A DNA stretch of 64,000 nt from Candidatus Poribacteria bacterium (lineage in GTDB: Bacteria; Poribacteria; WGA-4E; WGA-3G): contig OZ243938.1 of NCBI GenBank assembly GCA_965214095.1, forward strand, positions 3,296,001 to 3,360,000, read 5' to 3'. The notes under the pieces were generated by a model, which searched no databases, was not told where the DNA came from, and saw only the letters and a program-made list of their open reading frames with translations. Position numbers and translations under genes: made by a program. Of this stretch, positions 29,196-36,369 are shown piece by piece (the stretch's first letter is position 1; each line of letters opens with the position of its first letter).

Positions 29196-30332
29196 CTAAA
29201 AATAACCTTTGTTATATAATACCAACATTATGCCGCCAACGATGAGGAGACTACAAAATACGAGAATGAACCACGTTGCCCCTGAAGTTTTCTTCTCAAC
29301 GATAATCCTTTGCTGAACGGGTTCTGGTGGGGCGCGTTGTGTATTCGCATTCACAGACGGTGTTTCAGCGGTTGCAAGAAGTTCCTGTTTTATTGCCTCT
29401 TCATCAGGTAATTCATCGACCGTTACTGCCTCTACATTGTCCCCGTAGAATTTATCAGGATTTTCTTCAACGTAACTTGCAACAAAATCTTCATCCCGAT
29501 TTGTGCCAGGGTCTACGTAGTTCTCATTGGGTTCAACCCCTTGGTTTTCGTAATAATCTTTGTAGAATTCGTACTCTTTCTGTTTCTCGTCAGTCCAATG
29601 CTGTCTGTCGTAGTTTGGGTGGTGATAATGCCATAAATAACTACGACGAATCGCATGGTTATAGTAGTCATGGAAATAGAGTCCGAACATCAGATTATTA
29701 TACAACATAGCCCTCTCAAGACTATACATAGAGTAGCTTGAGTATGGATTATAGTACCCACGGTAGTTTGCGACAGTGATGGTTTGACGTTGTTGTCTGC
29801 GAGCACTTGCAGTTTGTCGGTTTGCTGTCGTGACCTTTCGTTTCAAACTACGGTTTTCTGCTTTTAGCTGCCGCACCTGTTTTCGATTTTGTGCTGTGGT
29901 TGCACGGTTGGTAGTGGTTTTACGTGTTGTCGGTGTGTTGGTTGCCTTTGCTCGATTCGTAGCAGTCTGTTTTTGGCGTGCAGATGTGCTTGACCGGGTC
30001 GTTGGAGTTTTTGATGTGCGGCTTCCGCTGTAACTGCTTCCTGTGCTACGTGTTGAAGAAGTGCGTGGCTTAGTATAAGAACTCTTTGAGGAAGAAGTGC
30101 TACTGCGAGAACTACTACTTGTGCGTTTCGGAGTGGAATAACTCCTTGAGCTGCGTGAGTAACTTCGACTTGAGCTGCGACTGAAACTGCGACTGAAACT
30201 GCGACCACCGCCAAAACTTCTGCGGCTTTCTACGATATCGGGGGCAATAGAAAATAAAAATAAAACTATTCCGAATATTGACAATATCCGTTTACATTTG
30301 GTTCCAAATGTTGGTTGATGGTATTTGTTCAT
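29196..30332 (-). CDS. Exported, C-terminally anchored low-complexity protein
   Basis: Signal/TM segment, Ser/Arg/Thr-rich tract, coiled coil, Tyr/His-rich block, acidic block, C-terminal TM; ATG 30332 after GGAGG. Confidence 0.75.
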   Translation of the reverse strand: MNKYHQPTFGTKCKRILSIFGIVLFLFSIAPDIVESRRSFGGGRSFSRSFSRSSSRSYSRSSRSYSTPKRTSSSSRSSTSSSKSSYTKPRTSSTRSTGSSYSGSRTSKTPTTRSSTSARQKQTATNRAKATNTPTTRKTTTNRATTAQNRKQVRQLKAENRSLKRKVTTANRQTASARRQQRQTITVANYRGYYNPYSSYSMYSLERAMLYNNLMFGLYFHDYYNHAIRRSYLWHYHHPNYDRQHWTDEKQKEYEFYKDYYENQGVEPNENYVDPGTNRDEDFVASYVEENPDKFYGDNVEAVTVDELPDEEAIKQELLATAETPSVNANTQRAPPEPVQQRIIVEKKTSGATWFILVFCSLLIVGGIMLVLYNKGYF

Positions 30333-30371
30333 GATACTGAAATCCTCCCACAAGTACTATAGACAAAAAAC

Positions 30372-30401
30372 TTGACAAACAATATCTATATTTGTTAAAC
30401 T
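30372..30401 (+). promoter_or_regulatory. Sigma70 promoter of tRNA-Arg(CCG)
   Basis: TTGACA-18 nt-TAAACT with TG extension. Confidence 0.7.
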
Positions 30402-30420
30402 AATATGACCCTTATAGTAT

Positions 30421-30494
<74 letters not shown>

Positions 30495-30604
30495 TTTTTT
30501 GTTCCTTCGCTGTTTGGTAAACCTCTTGAACCTTTACTGGCATCTCATTTTAATTATGTTAACATGAAAGGAAATGAGTGTCAAGGATATAGAAAGGAAA
30601 AAAT

Positions 30605-31477
30605 ATGGCACTTGATGTCCGTGATGAAAAACTATTGGAATTAGTTGATTCAGAAGCAGAAGTCAAACAGTTGGCTACTGGATTTCAATTTACCGAAGGA
30701 CCTCTCTGGAATTCTATTGGACGATATTTGCTCTTTAGTGATATTCCTGCGAATAAAATACGTAAATGGGATGAAGAATCTGGTATGTCCGTTTTCAGAG
30801 ACCCGTCTGGTAAGTCAAACGGTTTGACTTACGATAAAGGTGGCCACTTGATTACTTGTGAACACGCGAACCGTCGTGTTTCAAGAACTACAGCGGATGG
30901 AGACATTCAAACGATTGCATCACACTACAAAGGAAAACGTTTGAATAGTCCCAACGATATTGTTGTCAAATCGGATGGTAGCATCTATTTTACGGATCCA
31001 CCATACGGGATAACATCGGAATCAGAGAAAGAACTTGATTTTCACGGTGTGTACCGATTGTCTCCTGATAAACAAGACTTGACATTACTTGTAGATGATT
31101 TTGATAGACCGAACGGTATCTGTTTTTCACCTGATGAGTCTGTCTTATATATTAATGACACGAAACGGATGCACGTGCGTGCTTTTGATGTGCAAGATGA
31201 TGGTACGTTAGCCAATGGTCGTGTTTTCGCAGAGGAAGAGGGAAAAAATGGCGTTCCAGATGGTATGAAAGTGGATGTGAACGGTAATGTCTATTTGACA
31301 GGACCCAATGGTATATGGATATTTGCTCCAGATGGGACACACCTTGGTATTATTCTTGTTCCTGAACGCACAGCGAATCTTGCATGGGGTGGAGATTTTT
31401 GGAAGAGTCTTTTTATCACTGCGAGCACATCTATCTATCGCGTAGAATGCAAAGTAGAAGGGATAGCAGTTTCCTAA
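30605..31477 (+). CDS. SMP-30/gluconolactonase family protein
   Basis: FTEGPLW, LNSPND, FTDPPYG, PNGICFSPD, PDGMKVD. Confidence 0.92.
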   Translation: MALDVRDEKLLELVDSEAEVKQLATGFQFTEGPLWNSIGRYLLFSDIPANKIRKWDEESGMSVFRDPSGKSNGLTYDKGGHLITCEHANRRVSRTTADGDIQTIASHYKGKRLNSPNDIVVKSDGSIYFTDPPYGITSESEKELDFHGVYRLSPDKQDLTLLVDDFDRPNGICFSPDESVLYINDTKRMHVRAFDVQDDGTLANGRVFAEEEGKNGVPDGMKVDVNGNVYLTGPNGIWIFAPDGTHLGIILVPERTANLAWGGDFWKSLFITASTSIYRVECKVEGIAVS

Positions 31478-31908
31478 TGAAAGTGAAAATTAAAAGAGTA
31501 GACAAATCACTTCCTTTACCAAAATACGAAACTGACGGTTCGGTTGGATTTGACTTGTTGTGTCGTGAATCTGCTGAAATTGCACCGCATGAAATAGTTT
31601 TAATTCCAGCGAATGTAATTGTGGAAACGCCTCCCGGATACATGTTAATGTTGTGTATGCGGAGTAGTACCCCTCGTAAATTCGGATTGATGATGGCACA
31701 AAGTGTCGGTATTATTGACACTGACTATTGCGGTGAAGAAGATGAGATAAAAATCCAAGTTTACAATTTCACCGATGAGACTGTGACCATTGAACGTGGG
31801 AGTCGGATCGCACAAGCGATATTTGTCCGTGTTGCGACTGTGGAATGGGATGAGGTAGCGGGGATGACAGAGTCTTCGCGTGGAGGATTTGGGAGTACTG
31901 ACAAGTAA
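31477..31908 (+). CDS. dut: dUTPase
   Basis: GFDL, RSS, GIIDTDYCG, RIAQ, RGGFGST; TAATG overlap gives start 31477. Confidence 0.93.
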   Translation: MKVKIKRVDKSLPLPKYETDGSVGFDLLCRESAEIAPHEIVLIPANVIVETPPGYMLMLCMRSSTPRKFGLMMAQSVGIIDTDYCGEEDEIKIQVYNFTDETVTIERGSRIAQAIFVRVATVEWDEVAGMTESSRGGFGSTDK

Positions 31909-31971
31909 CTCTATTTTCTACCATTTCGTATTTATAGATAAACAAAATATAAGGGAGATATAAAAATAAAT

Positions 31972-32769
31972 ATGAAACAGTATCTTGAAGGACTACAACA
32001 GATATTAGACACAGGTGTTGATCGTGATGGCAGAAACGGGAAAACTCGCGCCTTGTTCGGTATGCAGATGCGGTATAATCTGGAAGATGGTTTTCCTGCA
32101 GTAACTACAAAGAAGCTTGCCTTTCGTTCTGTCAAGGCAGAACTACTTGGTTTTTTACGGGGTTATGATCACATCAAACAATTTCAGAAACTGGGAACGC
32201 AAATATGGAATGCTAATGCTGCTGCATGGGGGCGTGATGGTGCTCTCGGTTGTATCTATGGCGTTCAGTGGCGTAGGTGGCGAACAGAAGGTGGTAGGAT
32301 TGATCAGTTGGCAGAGGTGATTGAACAGATCAAGACAAATCCACATAGTCGTCGGCATGTCGTTACGGCATGGAATCCGGGCGAATTAGATCAGATGGCA
32401 TTAGCACCGTGCCACATGTTTTTCCAATTTTTTGTTGCAGATGACAAATTGTCGTTGCAGATGTATCAACGTAGTTGTGATATGTTTTTGGGTGTTCCTT
32501 TCAACATAGCGTCTTATTCGTTACTCCTTTCTATGGTTGCTCAGATAACGGGTCTTCAAGCGAGTGAATTTATCCATGTATTAGGAGACGCACATATTTA
32601 TCACACTCATTTTGATCAAGTCAAAGTACAACTCAAACGTCAGCCTTATCCATTACCTGAGCTTGTCCTTAACACGAAGGTGACCTCAATTGATAACTTC
32701 AAAATGCAGGATTTGCAGTTGGAAAACTACCAGTCTCATGATGCAATTCGTGCCAGAATGATTGTTTAA
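31972..32769 (+). CDS. thyA: Thymidylate synthase
   Basis: FPAVTTKK, SRRHVVTAWNP, LAPCH, YQRSCDMFLGVPFNIASY, GDAHIY. Confidence 0.97.
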   Translation: MKQYLEGLQQILDTGVDRDGRNGKTRALFGMQMRYNLEDGFPAVTTKKLAFRSVKAELLGFLRGYDHIKQFQKLGTQIWNANAAAWGRDGALGCIYGVQWRRWRTEGGRIDQLAEVIEQIKTNPHSRRHVVTAWNPGELDQMALAPCHMFFQFFVADDKLSLQMYQRSCDMFLGVPFNIASYSLLLSMVAQITGLQASEFIHVLGDAHIYHTHFDQVKVQLKRQPYPLPELVLNTKVTSIDNFKMQDLQLENYQSHDAIRARMIV

Positions 32770-32847
32770 AAAATCTAATCAGGTTTGGACATTTTTAGAG
32801 TTACGCGACAATAGGTTTAAGGAATATTAAAATGAATTCACCAACGT

Positions 32848-33176
32848 TTCAGGCAGGAAGCCCACTTCTTTAGGTGTGGGAGGAATGCCCGTTCCTATAT
32901 TTTGCTTGACAGAAAACGTCAAGTCTATTATTATATGCCCAAGCAAGTCGGAAGTGTCTTGCATATCGGGGCACGTTGATTATATCCGTGTCCAAGTAAC
33001 TCGAAGACGATAGTTCGCTCGAACAGCTTCCGAAGTCGGAAGTGTCTGAGGTTCTGTATCGTGGGTCGCTGGGACCCCTCGGTGGCATACAGGTAAAGTT
33101 ACGAGCCAAGACCGAAGAACATCAAGCCTGGCAGAAGATTAACACAATCCCATGCCTTTAGGCTTGGGTACCTGAA
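32848..33176 (+). mobile_element. ORF-less IS200/IS605-family derivative: left- and right-end hairpins around a structured interior
   Basis: GGCAGGAAGCCCACTTCTTTAGGTGTGGGAGGAATGCC (32852-32889) and CCCATGCCTTTAGGCTTGGGTACCTGAA (33149-33176) resemble TnpA(Y1)-bound subterminal hairpins with CTTTAG loops. Confidence 0.72.
32906..32934 (+). promoter_or_regulatory. Sigma70 promoter inside the IS200/IS605-derived element
   Basis: TTGACA-17 nt-TATTAT; the -35 lies within palindrome CTTGAC-N7-GTCAAG. Confidence 0.65.
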
Positions 33177-33285
33177 TAAGAACATGCTTATACACCTGTC
33201 GCCTCGCTGGGGCTTTTGTAAGTGGCACACTATATACTATTTCCTACGAATTGCAATCTACATAAAATCTCAAATGTAATATTTT

Positions 33286-33418
33286 TAGTAAAAACCATAA
33301 TTATTTACACACGACGGTAGGTTCGGTTTCCTAACCGAACCGGTGTTGTTCTGTCTCATAGATGCGGTTAGGAAACCGCATCTACCGCGGAGTGTGTACA
33401 TATTTTTACATTTCACTA
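33286..33418 (+). mobile_element. MITE-like element carrying an inverted GTAG-REP doublet (copy 1)
   Basis: Imperfect TIRs TAGTAAAAACC../..CATTTCACTA; near-identical inverted copy at 58035-58168. Confidence 0.8.
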
Positions 33419-33428
33419 TAATAGAAGA

Positions 33429-34211
33429 ATGACTATGACTAAAACAAAAAGCCTGATTGTCCTATGCATAAGTTTCATAATAGTACTCTGTGGATGCGGC
33501 AAACCCTCTCATGGTTTCAAAATCTACAGAAACAGTGATATGGTTTTAATCTTTTTAGCATTGCAGAATACATCTGAAATTGTTGACGCAACAATTGATA
33601 ATGGCAATAAAGAGCTGCAATTGGATATTGATACGGGTCAAGAGGTAGTGAATCATGTCATGTCTCTTAAACGGAAATTATTTGTCAGTCTCATCAAACC
33701 TGATGAGACGCTTGAAATTAAAGAAAGAGACAGGATAAATGGATACGGGATCGTTCATTTAACGGTATCTTCCCCTATACCCAACAGAGGGTCAATGTCT
33801 CTCAACTGGACAGGTATAAAGAAACCTGGTATTCCTCAGCAAGCAGGACTTTTCAACAATTCCGGAGCATTCCGTGTTGGTGATAGAATTTTGGCATACT
33901 GTCGTATTCCAGAACACGAAGAGTCGTCATGGAAAATTTCTAAATTTGGCGTTACAGTTGAAGTTACAGACACTACATCTTTTGAGAATCTTGAGGTCAA
34001 TACTGATGGGAATCCTGTTTTGGAGATTTTAACTGGTGATGAAGAAATAGGAAACCAGAAACTTAATTTTGTCCTTAAAGAACTGCAACCACATGAAACA
34101 GTTGAAGTAGAGAATAAACAGAAATTAGGTGATGATGTTTTTCTTGTTAACCTGAGGGTTATCCCAAAGAATAATCAGCATATAAATGATGATATTTTGT
34201 CAGATCGTTGA
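33429..34211 (+). CDS. Unknown lipoprotein (array member 1)
   Basis: Lipobox LCGC; EIVDA..L..DTG, DRING..IVHL shared with the next two genes. Confidence 0.72.
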   Translation: MTMTKTKSLIVLCISFIIVLCGCGKPSHGFKIYRNSDMVLIFLALQNTSEIVDATIDNGNKELQLDIDTGQEVVNHVMSLKRKLFVSLIKPDETLEIKERDRINGYGIVHLTVSSPIPNRGSMSLNWTGIKKPGIPQQAGLFNNSGAFRVGDRILAYCRIPEHEESSWKISKFGVTVEVTDTTSFENLEVNTDGNPVLEILTGDEEIGNQKLNFVLKELQPHETVEVENKQKLGDDVFLVNLRVIPKNNQHINDDILSDR

Positions 34212-34247
34212 GTAAATGTTCGCAGTGTAAAATGGGAGAATTTCCTT

Positions 34248-34982
34248 ATGAAAACCAACATTCTTTATATTATCAGTCTGTTACTGTTGTGTGTTAGTTG
34301 TAATGTTGAACAGAAACAACAACTGAGTTATGTGGAAGGTAGTGGTGGTCATGAATATCGAATGCATGAGATCCGTATACCAGAAAATTGGAAAATAGTG
34401 GATGCAGAACTTGATTTCAGACAGTTAAACTTAGAGTTTGATAGAGGTAATGGTATTGAAAAACAGAGTTTAAAATATCCATACAGAGCTTCTGACATCA
34501 TTGATGACTACTATGAGTTTTTTAAATTCAGAGGGGCAAATAGGTTAGCTGGACGAACTTTATTACATTTTTCCACAGATGAAGATCCGCAAAGCGAGTT
34601 TAACCCTCCTATTGGAACATCCAAGATTTCGTCAGGCATAAAAGAACGTGAAGAATTTGCCATCTATCGGACAAGTAGATTGCTTGTAATCCATTTCTCA
34701 ATTAAGAATACGGCTCTCGGTAATTTGACTTCTCACGACCTTACAAAACGTTACGCAAAAGGACCACATAATAGAGGAGAAACGGCTTATTTTGAAATCA
34801 TTGATGGTAAAATGCATTATAATATAGTGCTTAATAATAAAGAAACCCGAAGCTTTCTCATTGATGATTATTATAAGAATGAAACTTATAACGGTAGTGG
34901 AGAAAGCAATAGTATAAGCAATAATGAGGTAAGTTGGACTTGGAGTTATAGGATTACCTCTAAACATGAAATGGATAGGTAA
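34248..34982 (+). CDS. Unknown lipoprotein (array member 2)
   Basis: Lipobox CVSC; WKIVDA, FDRGNGIEK, GANRLAG..LHFS, NTALGNLTSHDL. Confidence 0.78.
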   Translation: MKTNILYIISLLLLCVSCNVEQKQQLSYVEGSGGHEYRMHEIRIPENWKIVDAELDFRQLNLEFDRGNGIEKQSLKYPYRASDIIDDYYEFFKFRGANRLAGRTLLHFSTDEDPQSEFNPPIGTSKISSGIKEREEFAIYRTSRLLVIHFSIKNTALGNLTSHDLTKRYAKGPHNRGETAYFEIIDGKMHYNIVLNNKETRSFLIDDYYKNETYNGSGESNSISNNEVSWTWSYRITSKHEMDR

Positions 34983-35043
34983 GTATAAAATCAATTCAGA
35001 TCGTTGAGTTAATGTTTGCGGTGTATATGCGGAGAACCGACAA

Positions 35044-35811
35044 ATGAAAACTTGGATAGTTTATATAATCAGTTTCTTATTACTGTGTAGTAGTTGCCAG
35101 ATGGAACAACGGAGCCTGATGGAACAAAAGTCACGTGACTTTTTTGAACAAGAACCGCGTATTATATCCATAGGTAGTGATGGATGGAGTACGTTTCAGA
35201 TAGTCATGCCGGTTCATTGGAAAATAGATGATGCTCAACTTAATTTAAACCCAATGAATCAAGAATTTGATTTACACTTAGCGTTTGATAGAGGTAGAGG
35301 TATAGAAAAACATAGTTTACCGGTTGATTTTCTGTCTAATGATTATGCCGAAGATATTCAATTCAGTGGTGCAAACAGAATTGATGGGTTGGCATTCTTG
35401 CACTTTAGTAAAAAAGATCCTCAGACTATGGCAAAACCTCCGTTGGGTATATCCAGAATTAATAAAGAAGCAAAATTCCATGAGATCATACTTGCTTATC
35501 GAAGCGGCAATCAACTTAAGGTGCTTTTTTTAGCCGAGAATACCTCGTTTGGTAATCTTCAATCTCACGATCTTCACCATTACTATTTTGGAGAAACTGA
35601 GATTAAAGACTATGCTAAGTATACATTAGAACTCAATAATGGTGAATTACAATTTAATTTTGGAAATAACTCCAAAGGCAACCGAAATTTTCCCATTCAT
35701 AAGTTGGTAAATCGGTATGAAGAATTTGGTCCTGGCGGCGAAGGGGCTGCTATGGGTTCAGTTAGGTTGCAGGTGACGGCGCGCTATGAATTAGTTTCTA
35801 AAGATAAATAA
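35044..35811 (+). CDS. Unknown lipoprotein (array member 3)
   Basis: Lipobox CSSC; WKIDDA, FDRGRGIEK, GANRIDG..LHFS, NTSFGNLQSHDL. Confidence 0.78.
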   Translation: MKTWIVYIISFLLLCSSCQMEQRSLMEQKSRDFFEQEPRIISIGSDGWSTFQIVMPVHWKIDDAQLNLNPMNQEFDLHLAFDRGRGIEKHSLPVDFLSNDYAEDIQFSGANRIDGLAFLHFSKKDPQTMAKPPLGISRINKEAKFHEIILAYRSGNQLKVLFLAENTSFGNLQSHDLHHYYFGETEIKDYAKYTLELNNGELQFNFGNNSKGNRNFPIHKLVNRYEEFGPGGEGAAMGSVRLQVTARYELVSKDK

Positions 35812-35865
35812 AATCAGAGAAATACAACTAACCGTTTTGCGAACCGATGGAGGACTGAAAGTACA

Positions 35866-36369
35866 TTGCAAATCTCAATGATTGCTGCGATAGATAAGAA
35901 TAGACTCATTGGCAATGGTCCAAACATCCCTTGGAAACTGCCTGCTGATCTCAAACACTTTCGTGAGATGACAATTGGCAAACCTGTCGTCATGGGACGC
36001 AAAACCTTTGAAACACTTCCACGTCCGTTGGCAAAGCGAAAGAATATCATCCTCACCCGCAATCAGAACTACACTGCCCCGAAAGGTTGTATAGTTACTC
36101 ACTCTGTAGAGGAAATCATTACAACTGTCAGCGAAATCTATGTCGACGTGACAACGGAACTTATGATTTGTGGTGGAGCGCCAATTTACGCAGCCTTTTT
36201 ATCACATTCTACCCGACTTTATCTCACACAGGTTCATGCTACGTTTGAAGGGGATGTCTATTTTCCTGAATTTGATTGGAATGCGTGGGATGAAGTGAAA
36301 CGGATTGACTGTGATGCGGATGAGAAGAATCCTTATCCTTACAGTTTTTTGGTTTTAGATAAGAAATAG
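35866..36369 (+). CDS. folA: Dihydrofolate reductase
   Basis: IG..PNIPWKLPADLKHF, VMGRKTFE, PLAKRKNIILT, ICGGAPIY, GDVYFP. Confidence 0.96.
   Translation: MQISMIAAIDKNRLIGNGPNIPWKLPADLKHFREMTIGKPVVMGRKTFETLPRPLAKRKNIILTRNQNYTAPKGCIVTHSVEEIITTVSEIYVDVTTELMICGGAPIYAAFLSHSTRLYLTQVHATFEGDVYFPEFDWNAWDEVKRIDCDADEKNPYPYSFLVLDKK

Follow-up and report, generated by a model that had tools for sequence, protein, structure and literature searches.

What does a transposon carry when it encodes no protein? The question is raised by a 335-bp miniature of the IS200/IS605 group of insertion sequences (ISs), which lies at 32842-33176 on the plus strand of the stretch of DNA analysed here. This stretch, referred to as the window, is 64,000 nucleotides long and corresponds to G000:C1:3296001-3360000 of the genome of a sponge symbiont, Candidatus Poribacteria; positions are those of the window unless they carry a contig label. 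We think it probable that the element is a stand-alone guide RNA (omega RNA) for the nuclease TnpB, carried on a mini-transposon of the palindrome-associated transposable element (PATE) type, mobilised by the transposase TnpA and used by TnpB in trans. The parts of the element that bear on its borders and its transcription are as follows.

32837-32841, plus strand: target site and predicted target-adjacent motif (TAM) TTCAC, outside the element; copies are preceded by TTCAC or CTCAC.
32842-33176, plus strand: the whole non-autonomous IS200/IS605-type element, 335 bp, a PATE or miniature inverted-repeat transposable element (MITE), delimited by five copies with common borders and by a precise empty site in a relative.
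32842-32900, plus strand: left end with the subterminal hairpin CCCAC..GTGGG (32861-32880), read from the sequence, with CTTTAG in the loop.
32906-32934, plus strand: sigma-70-type promoter, TTGACA (32906-32911), a 17-nt spacer and TATTAT (32929-32934), matching 11 of 12 consensus positions and facing the right end.
33149-33176, plus strand: right-end hairpin CCCATGCC-TTTA-GGCTTGGG (33149-33168; stem 33149-33156 with 33161-33168, loop TTTA at 33157-33160) and the 8-nt tail TACCTGAA, with cleavage predicted after 33176.
33177-33196, plus strand: right flank TAAGAACATGCTTATACACC, the guide predicted from the anatomy if the transcript reads through.

The host genome contains five copies of the element that are 97-100% identical, sit in unrelated flanks in both orientations, and share the same sharp borders. 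All five are preceded by YTCAC (TTCAC or CTCAC) and end in ..GGGTACCTGAA. For copy c4, an empty site is preserved in the closest relative found (G029), where the flanks abut as ...CTCTCACTCAC|GATCCTCATGG..., that is CTCAC|GATCCTCATGG, with exactly 335 bases absent and no target-site duplication. This site fixes the borders at 32842-33176 and the target TTCAC at 32837-32841, and an empty site without duplication is the signature of IS200/IS605 peel-and-paste insertion 3' of the target. A first-pass annotation, made from the letters of the window alone, had described a mobile derivative of IS200/IS605 without an open reading frame (ORF), which the five copies and the precise empty site bear out; the extent it gave, 32848-33200, is corrected by the same data, and the TTCAC lies outside the element. 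It had also suggested looking for the empty site beside thyA. That site, which belongs to the window copy, is unusable, as the spacer downstream of thyA has diverged too far in the relatives, and it was copy c4 that supplied a clean one; searches on behalf of copies c2 and c3 gave repeat matches only. Copy c5 (G000:C1:2067904-2068378, locus L005) is inverted and lies about 44 nt past the right end of a 382-aa tnpB element, such that the two right ends face each other.

The longest ORF in the element is 79 aa (32870-33109, minus strand) and has no Pfam match, and no reading frame looks conserved because the indels of homologues, as seen in the alignment, vary in length. Both ends are formed by subterminal imperfect hairpins, with no inverted terminal repeats, and these resemble the hairpins of resident tnpB and tnpA-tnpB elements. 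The left end together with the promoter shares about 84% identity with the corresponding part of a tnpB-only IS at C1:325900 and of two other non-autonomous families in the same genome. In the IS at C1:325900, TTGACA-17-TATACT stands upstream of tnpB at the same place as the element promoter, which is thus inherited from the parent IS. The earlier claim that the element has its own promoter therefore holds for its presence and its direction toward the right end, not for its origin. The motif is kept in most relatives. Within family f1 an exact TTGACA-N16-18-TAnnnT is found in 15 of 25, or 19 of 25 if one mismatch is allowed, and is missing in six. In family f3 an extended -10, TGnTAnAAT, directly precedes the core described below in 9 of 12 relatives. 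Promoter-like sites in the 900-bp region number 4, compared with 2.3 +/- 1.5 in shuffles. Transcription is predicted from the sequence to start near 32941. Terminator-like sites in the window element (32876, 32904 and 32954) belong to the left end, the promoter or a 5' hairpin, and no U-tract follows the right-end hairpin in the aligned rows. As the promoter faces the right end and this U-tract is missing, the flank is positioned to serve as a 3' guide, which would start at TAAGAACATGCTTATAC, just where the first-pass annotation had put it. The ends with CTTTAG-type loops, the TTGACA-17-TATTAT, a 15-nt repeat and the lack of a sizeable ORF, all of which it had listed, are likewise in the sequence.

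Between the promoter and the right-end hairpin, the interior folds into the following parts.

32943-32991, plus strand: two 5' hairpins, GCAAG/CTTGC (32943-32962) and GCACG/CGTGT (32971-32991), missing from the f3 versions.
32989-33120, plus strand: conserved RNA core, based on model R1, pair counts, duplex energies and the comparison of G.U with A.C.
32996-33001 with 33097-33102, plus strand: helix A, GTAACT/AGTTAC, which closes the core, from covariation.
Within the core at 32989-33120, plus strand: a short helix AGAC/GTCT and the hairpins TAGTTCG..CGAACA and CTTCCG..CGGAAG, from the alignment.
33053-33059 with 33087-33093, plus strand: helix B, TCTGTAT/ATACAGG, with a variable hairpin inside, from the alignment.
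33079-33086 with 33105-33115, plus strand: pseudoknot of TCGG-GGC with GCC-AAGA-CCGA, from duplex folding of 26 distinct sequences.
33103-33148, plus strand: 3' linker module between the core and the right-end hairpin, colinear with the 3' end of the resident tnpA-tnpB IS605.

The structure of the core was drawn from an alignment of 28 distinct core sequences, and the pseudoknot was added from two-segment duplex folding. In this alignment 97.1% of cells pair, compared with 88.2% in shuffles, and the covariation score is 0.301 compared with 0.134; none of 500 shuffles was as high by either measure, and in slid controls only 30-48% of cells pair. Of the 37 core pairs, 12 vary on both sides, three of them in the pseudoknot. 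Five helices and the pseudoknot covary, and the second 5' hairpin (GCACG/CGTGT) shows compensatory changes at two pairs. The helices GCACG/CGTGT, GTAACT/AGTTAC, CTTCCG/CGGAAG and CTGTAT/ATACAG of the first-pass annotation are among those backed by covariation. Of 1036 cells, 77 are G.U and 14 A.C, which places the RNA on the plus strand. A GAGGTT in the core is invariant and unpaired. Folding of the single sequence is mildly better than that of shuffles (z = -2.2). The interior is a real conserved RNA family under RNA-level selection.

This family has no counterpart in Rfam, the window copy and five relatives all being without a match. In a scan of the window from 30000 to 36000 against Rfam 15, the sole match to reach its gathering score was a tRNA at 30421-30494, and six related loci gave only a weak HEARO match, in an IsrB-like element, and a weak sot0042 match. 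HEARO (RF02033), one of the families suggested beforehand for the RNA of the element, gave no match in the window at E-values up to 10, nor in the relatives at values up to 1, and no self-cleaving ribozyme family was matched in either. A literature search on Rfam motif names returned nothing relevant among the entries listed.

The 15-nt direct repeat, AAGTCGGAAGTGTCT, stands at 32945-32959 and 33033-33047, so that the first 5' hairpin has a copy of a core segment, AAGTCGGAAGTGTCT, in its loop and 3' arm. Many relatives of genus g6 share the repeat, which is absent from those with a different 5' hairpin and from f3, and which could permit alternative pairing with CTTCCGA.

The RNA is widespread in the phylum. 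A DNA search within the family matched the interior at 73-91% identity in other genomes of two genera. Model R1 recovers the five copies of the host genome and, in a sample of 151 genomes from the phylum, detects the RNA in 44 that belong to 3 of the 22 genera (5 of 37 genomes in g1, 26 of 57 in g6 and 12 of 20 in g10), with about 20 copies each in G133 and G141 of g10. The g10 versions, which represent family f3, have the same ends and core, large insertions and a longer 3' part; they are without the 5' hairpins and begin at the core. A 16-mer scan of genome contigs gave 115 loci, 27 of which contain the element and the rest of which are chance matches in other phyla. In metagenomes, a first search pattern found nothing and a second found 16 contigs, one with the element, and that contig has no tnpB match.

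Evidence for a guide function comes chiefly from the 3' part of the RNA. In G151, a copy of the element and a tnpB element of the same genome agree at 71 of 87 bases without a gap, with three mismatches in the last 60, and the match extends into GTTACGAG, the closing helix of the core and the 3' strand of the pseudoknot. The element matches a same-genome tnpB element at 57 of 72 bases in G127 and a tnpB-linked 3' end at 33 of 39 in G020, and in the host genome its right end matches that of the resident IS605 at 31 of 34. Over the 51 nt upstream of the hairpin, the comparison with the IS605 3' end scores 35, a value reached by 5 of 3000 random genome windows, some of which may be element copies; the other eight TnpB families score 24 or less against this module. 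From these alignments the last ~90 nt appear to be homologous to tnpB-linked 3' ends, where the TnpB guide RNA is encoded.

The proteins that such an RNA would require appear to be at hand. The host genome has five matches to the Y1 transposase (TnpA), four of them 141-aa open frames, and 22 to the TnpB Zn-ribbon domain. A resident tnpA-tnpB IS605 of about 1.8 kb is present in four copies, each after TTCAC. Its right end, ..CCTTTAGGCTTGGGTAGTTGAA, terminates in CCCAATGCCTTTAGGCTTGGGTAGTTGAA and is 85-91% identical to that of the element over ~35 nt, and its 421-aa TnpB, located at G000:C1:4230446-4231705, has the Pfam domains HTH (helix-turn-helix), OrfB_IS605 and TNB. By sequence, then, the genome has a putative autonomous partner with a Y1 TnpA and matching ends, and the copy search that the first-pass annotation had recommended thus turned up not only the further copies but also resident IS200/IS605 nuclease elements with fitting ends. 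A sister protein-less family of ~413 bp (four copies, 97-99% identical, at G000:C1:781035, 5082168, 959499 and 3279459) has the same design, with the left end of the element and a promoter TTGACA-17-TAAAAT. Over the last 110 nt this family shows ~78% identity to the tnpB-only IS at C1:325900, at its 3' end, and this part is unmistakably tnpB-derived, which we count in favour of a guide, as we do the internal promoter aimed at the right end.

Two further groups of TnpB-like genes were noted. Four open frames of 528-568 aa, 92-95% identical to one another (G000:C1:3413998-3415704, 2451771-2453366, 2759589-2761175 and 3207780-3209375), are extended at the N-terminus by ~190 aa and are not followed by a right-end hairpin of the usual type. 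Many relatives of a 408-aa TnpB (loci L200-L226) show one in-frame TAA close to the C-terminus of the match; in their 3' regions, conserved hairpins with compensatory changes follow one another and probably represent the omega RNA of this clade. Descent of the interior from the coding 3' end of the 408-aa TnpB was considered on the strength of one alignment with a score of 50 (equalled by none of 500 shuffles and by 3 of 1499 random windows), and was dropped as unproven because reverse-complement controls reach scores at least as high as other variants of the element do.

The data show that the element is mobile, what its ends are, that its promoter motif is conserved, that its interior is under selection at the RNA level and that its 3' part is homologous to tnpB-linked ends; transcription, read-through, TnpB binding and a role in homing we infer. 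The available text of bioRxiv 10.1101/2023.03.14.532601 states that IS200/IS605 elements transpose as single-stranded top-strand DNA. The TnpA of the resident IS605, proposed as the mobiliser for its four copies, the TTCAC target in common and its near-identical right end, would recognise both hairpin ends of the element, and the top strand would be excised and re-inserted 3' of TTCAC without duplication. The internal promoter would then give rise to an RNA of ~236 nt that continues past the right end into the flank, so that the element would be the scaffold and the adjoining 16-20 nt of flank the guide. A TnpB encoded elsewhere, most likely the 421-aa TnpB of the resident IS605, may bind this RNA in trans and cut the vacated site (TTCAC plus flank), after which repair from a sister copy would restore the element. 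When the five would-be guides were searched for second genomic sites, chance matches within 2 mismatches were returned, none of them adjacent to a TAM among the matches listed (up to four per copy). The distribution of the 421-aa TnpB family lends a little to this scheme. It is found in 25 of 26 RNA-positive genomes of g6 and 10 of 12 of g10, and in g1 in 4 of 6 RNA-positive genomes compared with 3 of 33 RNA-negative ones; the co-occurrence is weak, and suggestive in g1 only, because the genomes are related and the base rates high.

Several observations weigh against a guide function and have to be set beside this evidence. Five RNA-positive genomes (G018, G013, G099, G145 and G160) are without the 421-aa TnpB family. 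Upstream of the hairpin, the local IS605 aligns with gaps and at a modest score (z about 4), and over the whole interior the similarity is marginal, with a score of 39 that 19 of 500 shuffles equal. For the core, no tnpB-linked relative came to light: with filters off, R1 had no match to it in five tnpB loci of the host genome, its best result against the 408-aa TnpB locus was 5.4 bits (E 0.22), and at E-values up to 10 it matched none of 29 loci of the 408-aa family and none of 28 loci of 421-aa-like TnpBs, while nhmmer profiles matched right-end hairpins only, with weak E-values. No locus examined has a tnpB gene directly adjoining the RNA, though some contigs are short. A tnpB was near the RNA in none of 28 interior-matching loci, and in further sets of loci in 1 of 27 (at 1.6 kb), 1 of 12 (on the opposite strand), 0 of 8 and 0 of 1. 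TnpB and Cas12 guide RNAs typically form a pseudoknot beside the guide segment, and the first-pass annotation had proposed one between CAGGTA and the terminal TACCTG. This candidate is 87% paired, has no compensatory change, is broken at one pair in 10 of 23 sequences, and clashes with the covarying helix B; the pseudoknot of 33079-33086 with 33105-33115 is supported instead. Contig sets from four RNA runs, inspected over 32700-33400, cover only 33276-33395 (mainly 33315-33343) and not the element, which is uninformative either way. What stands of the earlier proposal of a guide RNA acting in trans is therefore the conserved plus-strand RNA, the guide-proximal homology to tnpB 3' ends of the same genome and the matching TnpA and TnpB genes, and what lacks support from covariation is its boundary pseudoknot.

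Because the core is conserved across two families and the 3' module resembles the resident tnpB element, the element may be an RNA-only lineage of long standing in which the guide-proximal part stays matched to the local TnpB and TnpA, and it is module exchange, these patterns suggest, that would keep it compatible with the enzymes of its hosts. A bolder version, which we offer tentatively and are inclined to doubt, is that the core is the body of an independent, selfish RNA-only lineage older than the split of the two Poribacteria families, parasitising TnpA to move and TnpB to home and swapping its 3' module with resident tnpB elements. The core would in that case be a new RNA fold free of coding constraint, and might replace the part of the scaffold that normally lies within the tnpB reading frame, or recruit another factor.

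Among the explanations that do without a guide, the one that survives best, unlikely as we hold it to be, is that the RNA is a cargo with its own function, such as a ribozyme, a protein-sequestering or regulatory small RNA or a regulator of transposition, which travels on IS200/IS605 ends and resembles tnpB elements at its 3' end only through what TnpA needs of a right end. A cargo would readily account for a pseudoknotted core that is conserved across two families yet lacks a tnpB-linked or Rfam counterpart, for the absence of an adjoining tnpB gene, and for invariant unpaired bases such as GAGGTT. It accounts poorly for the length of the 3' homology, which at 87 ungapped nt in G151 far exceeds the ~35 nt needed by TnpA, or for a right-end hairpin without a U-tract, with which the RNA would include flank sequence; the ribozyme variant also has no match to a self-cleaving family in its favour. 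We retain the omega RNA as the preferred reading of the element.

It has also to be asked whether the pairings act in RNA at all, given that the helices lie on the same top strand that moves as single-stranded DNA, and could be needed there during peel-and-paste transposition. Wobble pairs are weaker in DNA, and the 77 G.U against 14 A.C cells argue for RNA, as does a promoter motif that is retained where it is expected, as -35/-10 in f1 and as an extended -10 in f3. Full-length relatives carry a coding gene in place of the interior, so that the structure would not be needed for their movement, and we regard the DNA explanation as very improbable. The same low standing is given to the idea that the element is a mobile, outward-facing promoter for neighbouring genes, here the 260-aa ORF at 33429-34211, with an incidental fold. 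The promoter does face a downstream gene on the same strand and its motif is conserved in most relatives, but the strong covariation reveals selection on the fold itself, the five copies sit in unrelated flanks in both orientations, and a terminator-like hairpin (33201-33213) and a palindromic repeat separate the element from the next gene. Finally, a functionless deletion remnant of a tnpB element that looks conserved through recent spread, which the 97-100% identity of the host-genome copies and the origin of some PATEs by internal deletion might suggest, is scarcely credible when homologues from other genera, at 73-86% identity, preserve the pairings by changing on both sides, f3 versions with large insertions retain the same core, and the core pair counts disfavour it.

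The surroundings of the element may be described briefly. It is flanked by a thymidylate synthase gene (31972-32769, PF00303) on one side and the 260-aa ORF, which is unassigned, on the other, and the tRNA gene at 30421-30494 (67.5 bits, Rfam RF00005) lies upstream of dUTPase-like and thymidylate synthase genes. Right of the element, a short repeat of 26-43 nt at 33189-33224, which includes the terminator-like hairpin, has about 10 more copies in the genome at 84-96% identity. It is followed by an abundant repeat of ~140 nt (33283-33421) with a palindromic centre, GGTTCGGTTTCCTAACCGAACC, at 33320-33341 and well over 100 matches across the genus. In the four RNA-run contig sets, the centre of this repeat (33315-33343, 29 nt) is the sole part of the 701-nt stretch with high depth.

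If the guide function is correct, the element provides a natural guide-RNA gene freed from an overlapping tnpB frame, in which covariation would show the parts of a TnpB-type scaffold that are kept by RNA-level selection alone, and this could help to trim or design such scaffolds. It would also mean that protein-less, guide-carrying mini-transposons are abundant in an uncultivated phylum of sponge symbionts, given the 44 of 151 genomes and the ~20 copies in some. The conserved core combined with lineage-specific 3' modules hints at evolution by module exchange.

Comparison with the IscB/IsrB omega RNA (HEARO, RF02033), a guide RNA of the same transposon superfamily, is invited by a resident 1272-bp family of five copies (L012:1490-2760, the G000:C1:1931302 region and 4 more) that has the left-end type of the element. 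Its 399-aa ORF, IsrB/IscB-like by its RRXRR domain, runs on the opposite strand, and directly upstream of this ORF, at the right end, is the weak HEARO match, which at 29.5 bits (E 0.013) stays below the gathering score. That match lies on the opposite strand relative to the left end, whereas the RNA of the element is on the top strand. In the HEARO class the guide is 5' and transcription runs inward from outside the right end, while the element has an internal promoter and no RF02033 match.

The ISDra2 omega RNA offers another comparison. As described in the available text of PMC10097598, it has a right-end hairpin (stem 4) with a UUUA loop at -20 to -17 and a pseudoknot of -5 to -3 with about -104. 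The TTTA loop of the element is at -20 to -17 from its end, the same position, and in ISDra2, as predicted for the element, the RNA end coincides with the transposon right end and the guide lies beyond it. A multi-stemmed scaffold with a pseudoknot is common to the two. They are not similar in sequence, that of ISDra2 overlaps the reading frame of tnpB, and the Poribacteria pseudoknot is ~60-100 nt from the end, the guide-adjacent one being unsupported.

The kind of element described here is already in print, going by the available text of PMC10691335 and bioRxiv 10.1101/2023.03.14.532601. The former, crediting its reference 1, reports that stand-alone mobilised omega RNAs without effector and transposase are present in genomes that also have effector-bearing loci, and that they were shown to serve compatible effectors in trans. 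The Poribacteria element is alike in being mobilised, in missing both nuclease and transposase, and in having a host genome with effector loci; it differs in that the 5' two-thirds of its RNA have no detectable counterpart beside any tnpB and that use in trans is here predicted. The latter (Meers et al.) states that the PATEs of Geobacillus stearothermophilus 'often encode' omega RNAs, for which the TnpB of distinct IS elements must act in trans. These PATEs share the gene-less left and right ends, and are mobilised in trans by TnpA; they belong to another phylum and another RNA sequence family, and in comparison the Poribacteria family is followed here through three genera, its pairings covary, and its 3' module goes with the tnpB element of the local genome. 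As stand-alone omega RNAs and omega-encoding PATEs are described in the available text of both sources, the new class of noncoding RNA that the first-pass annotation had offered as a second option is not needed. Particular to this case are the Poribacteria setting, an RNA family outside Rfam, a pseudoknotted 5' core without a counterpart next to tnpB and a lineage-tracking 3' module, so that the value of the element lies in a well-resolved example and an unlisted RNA family rather than in a new system.

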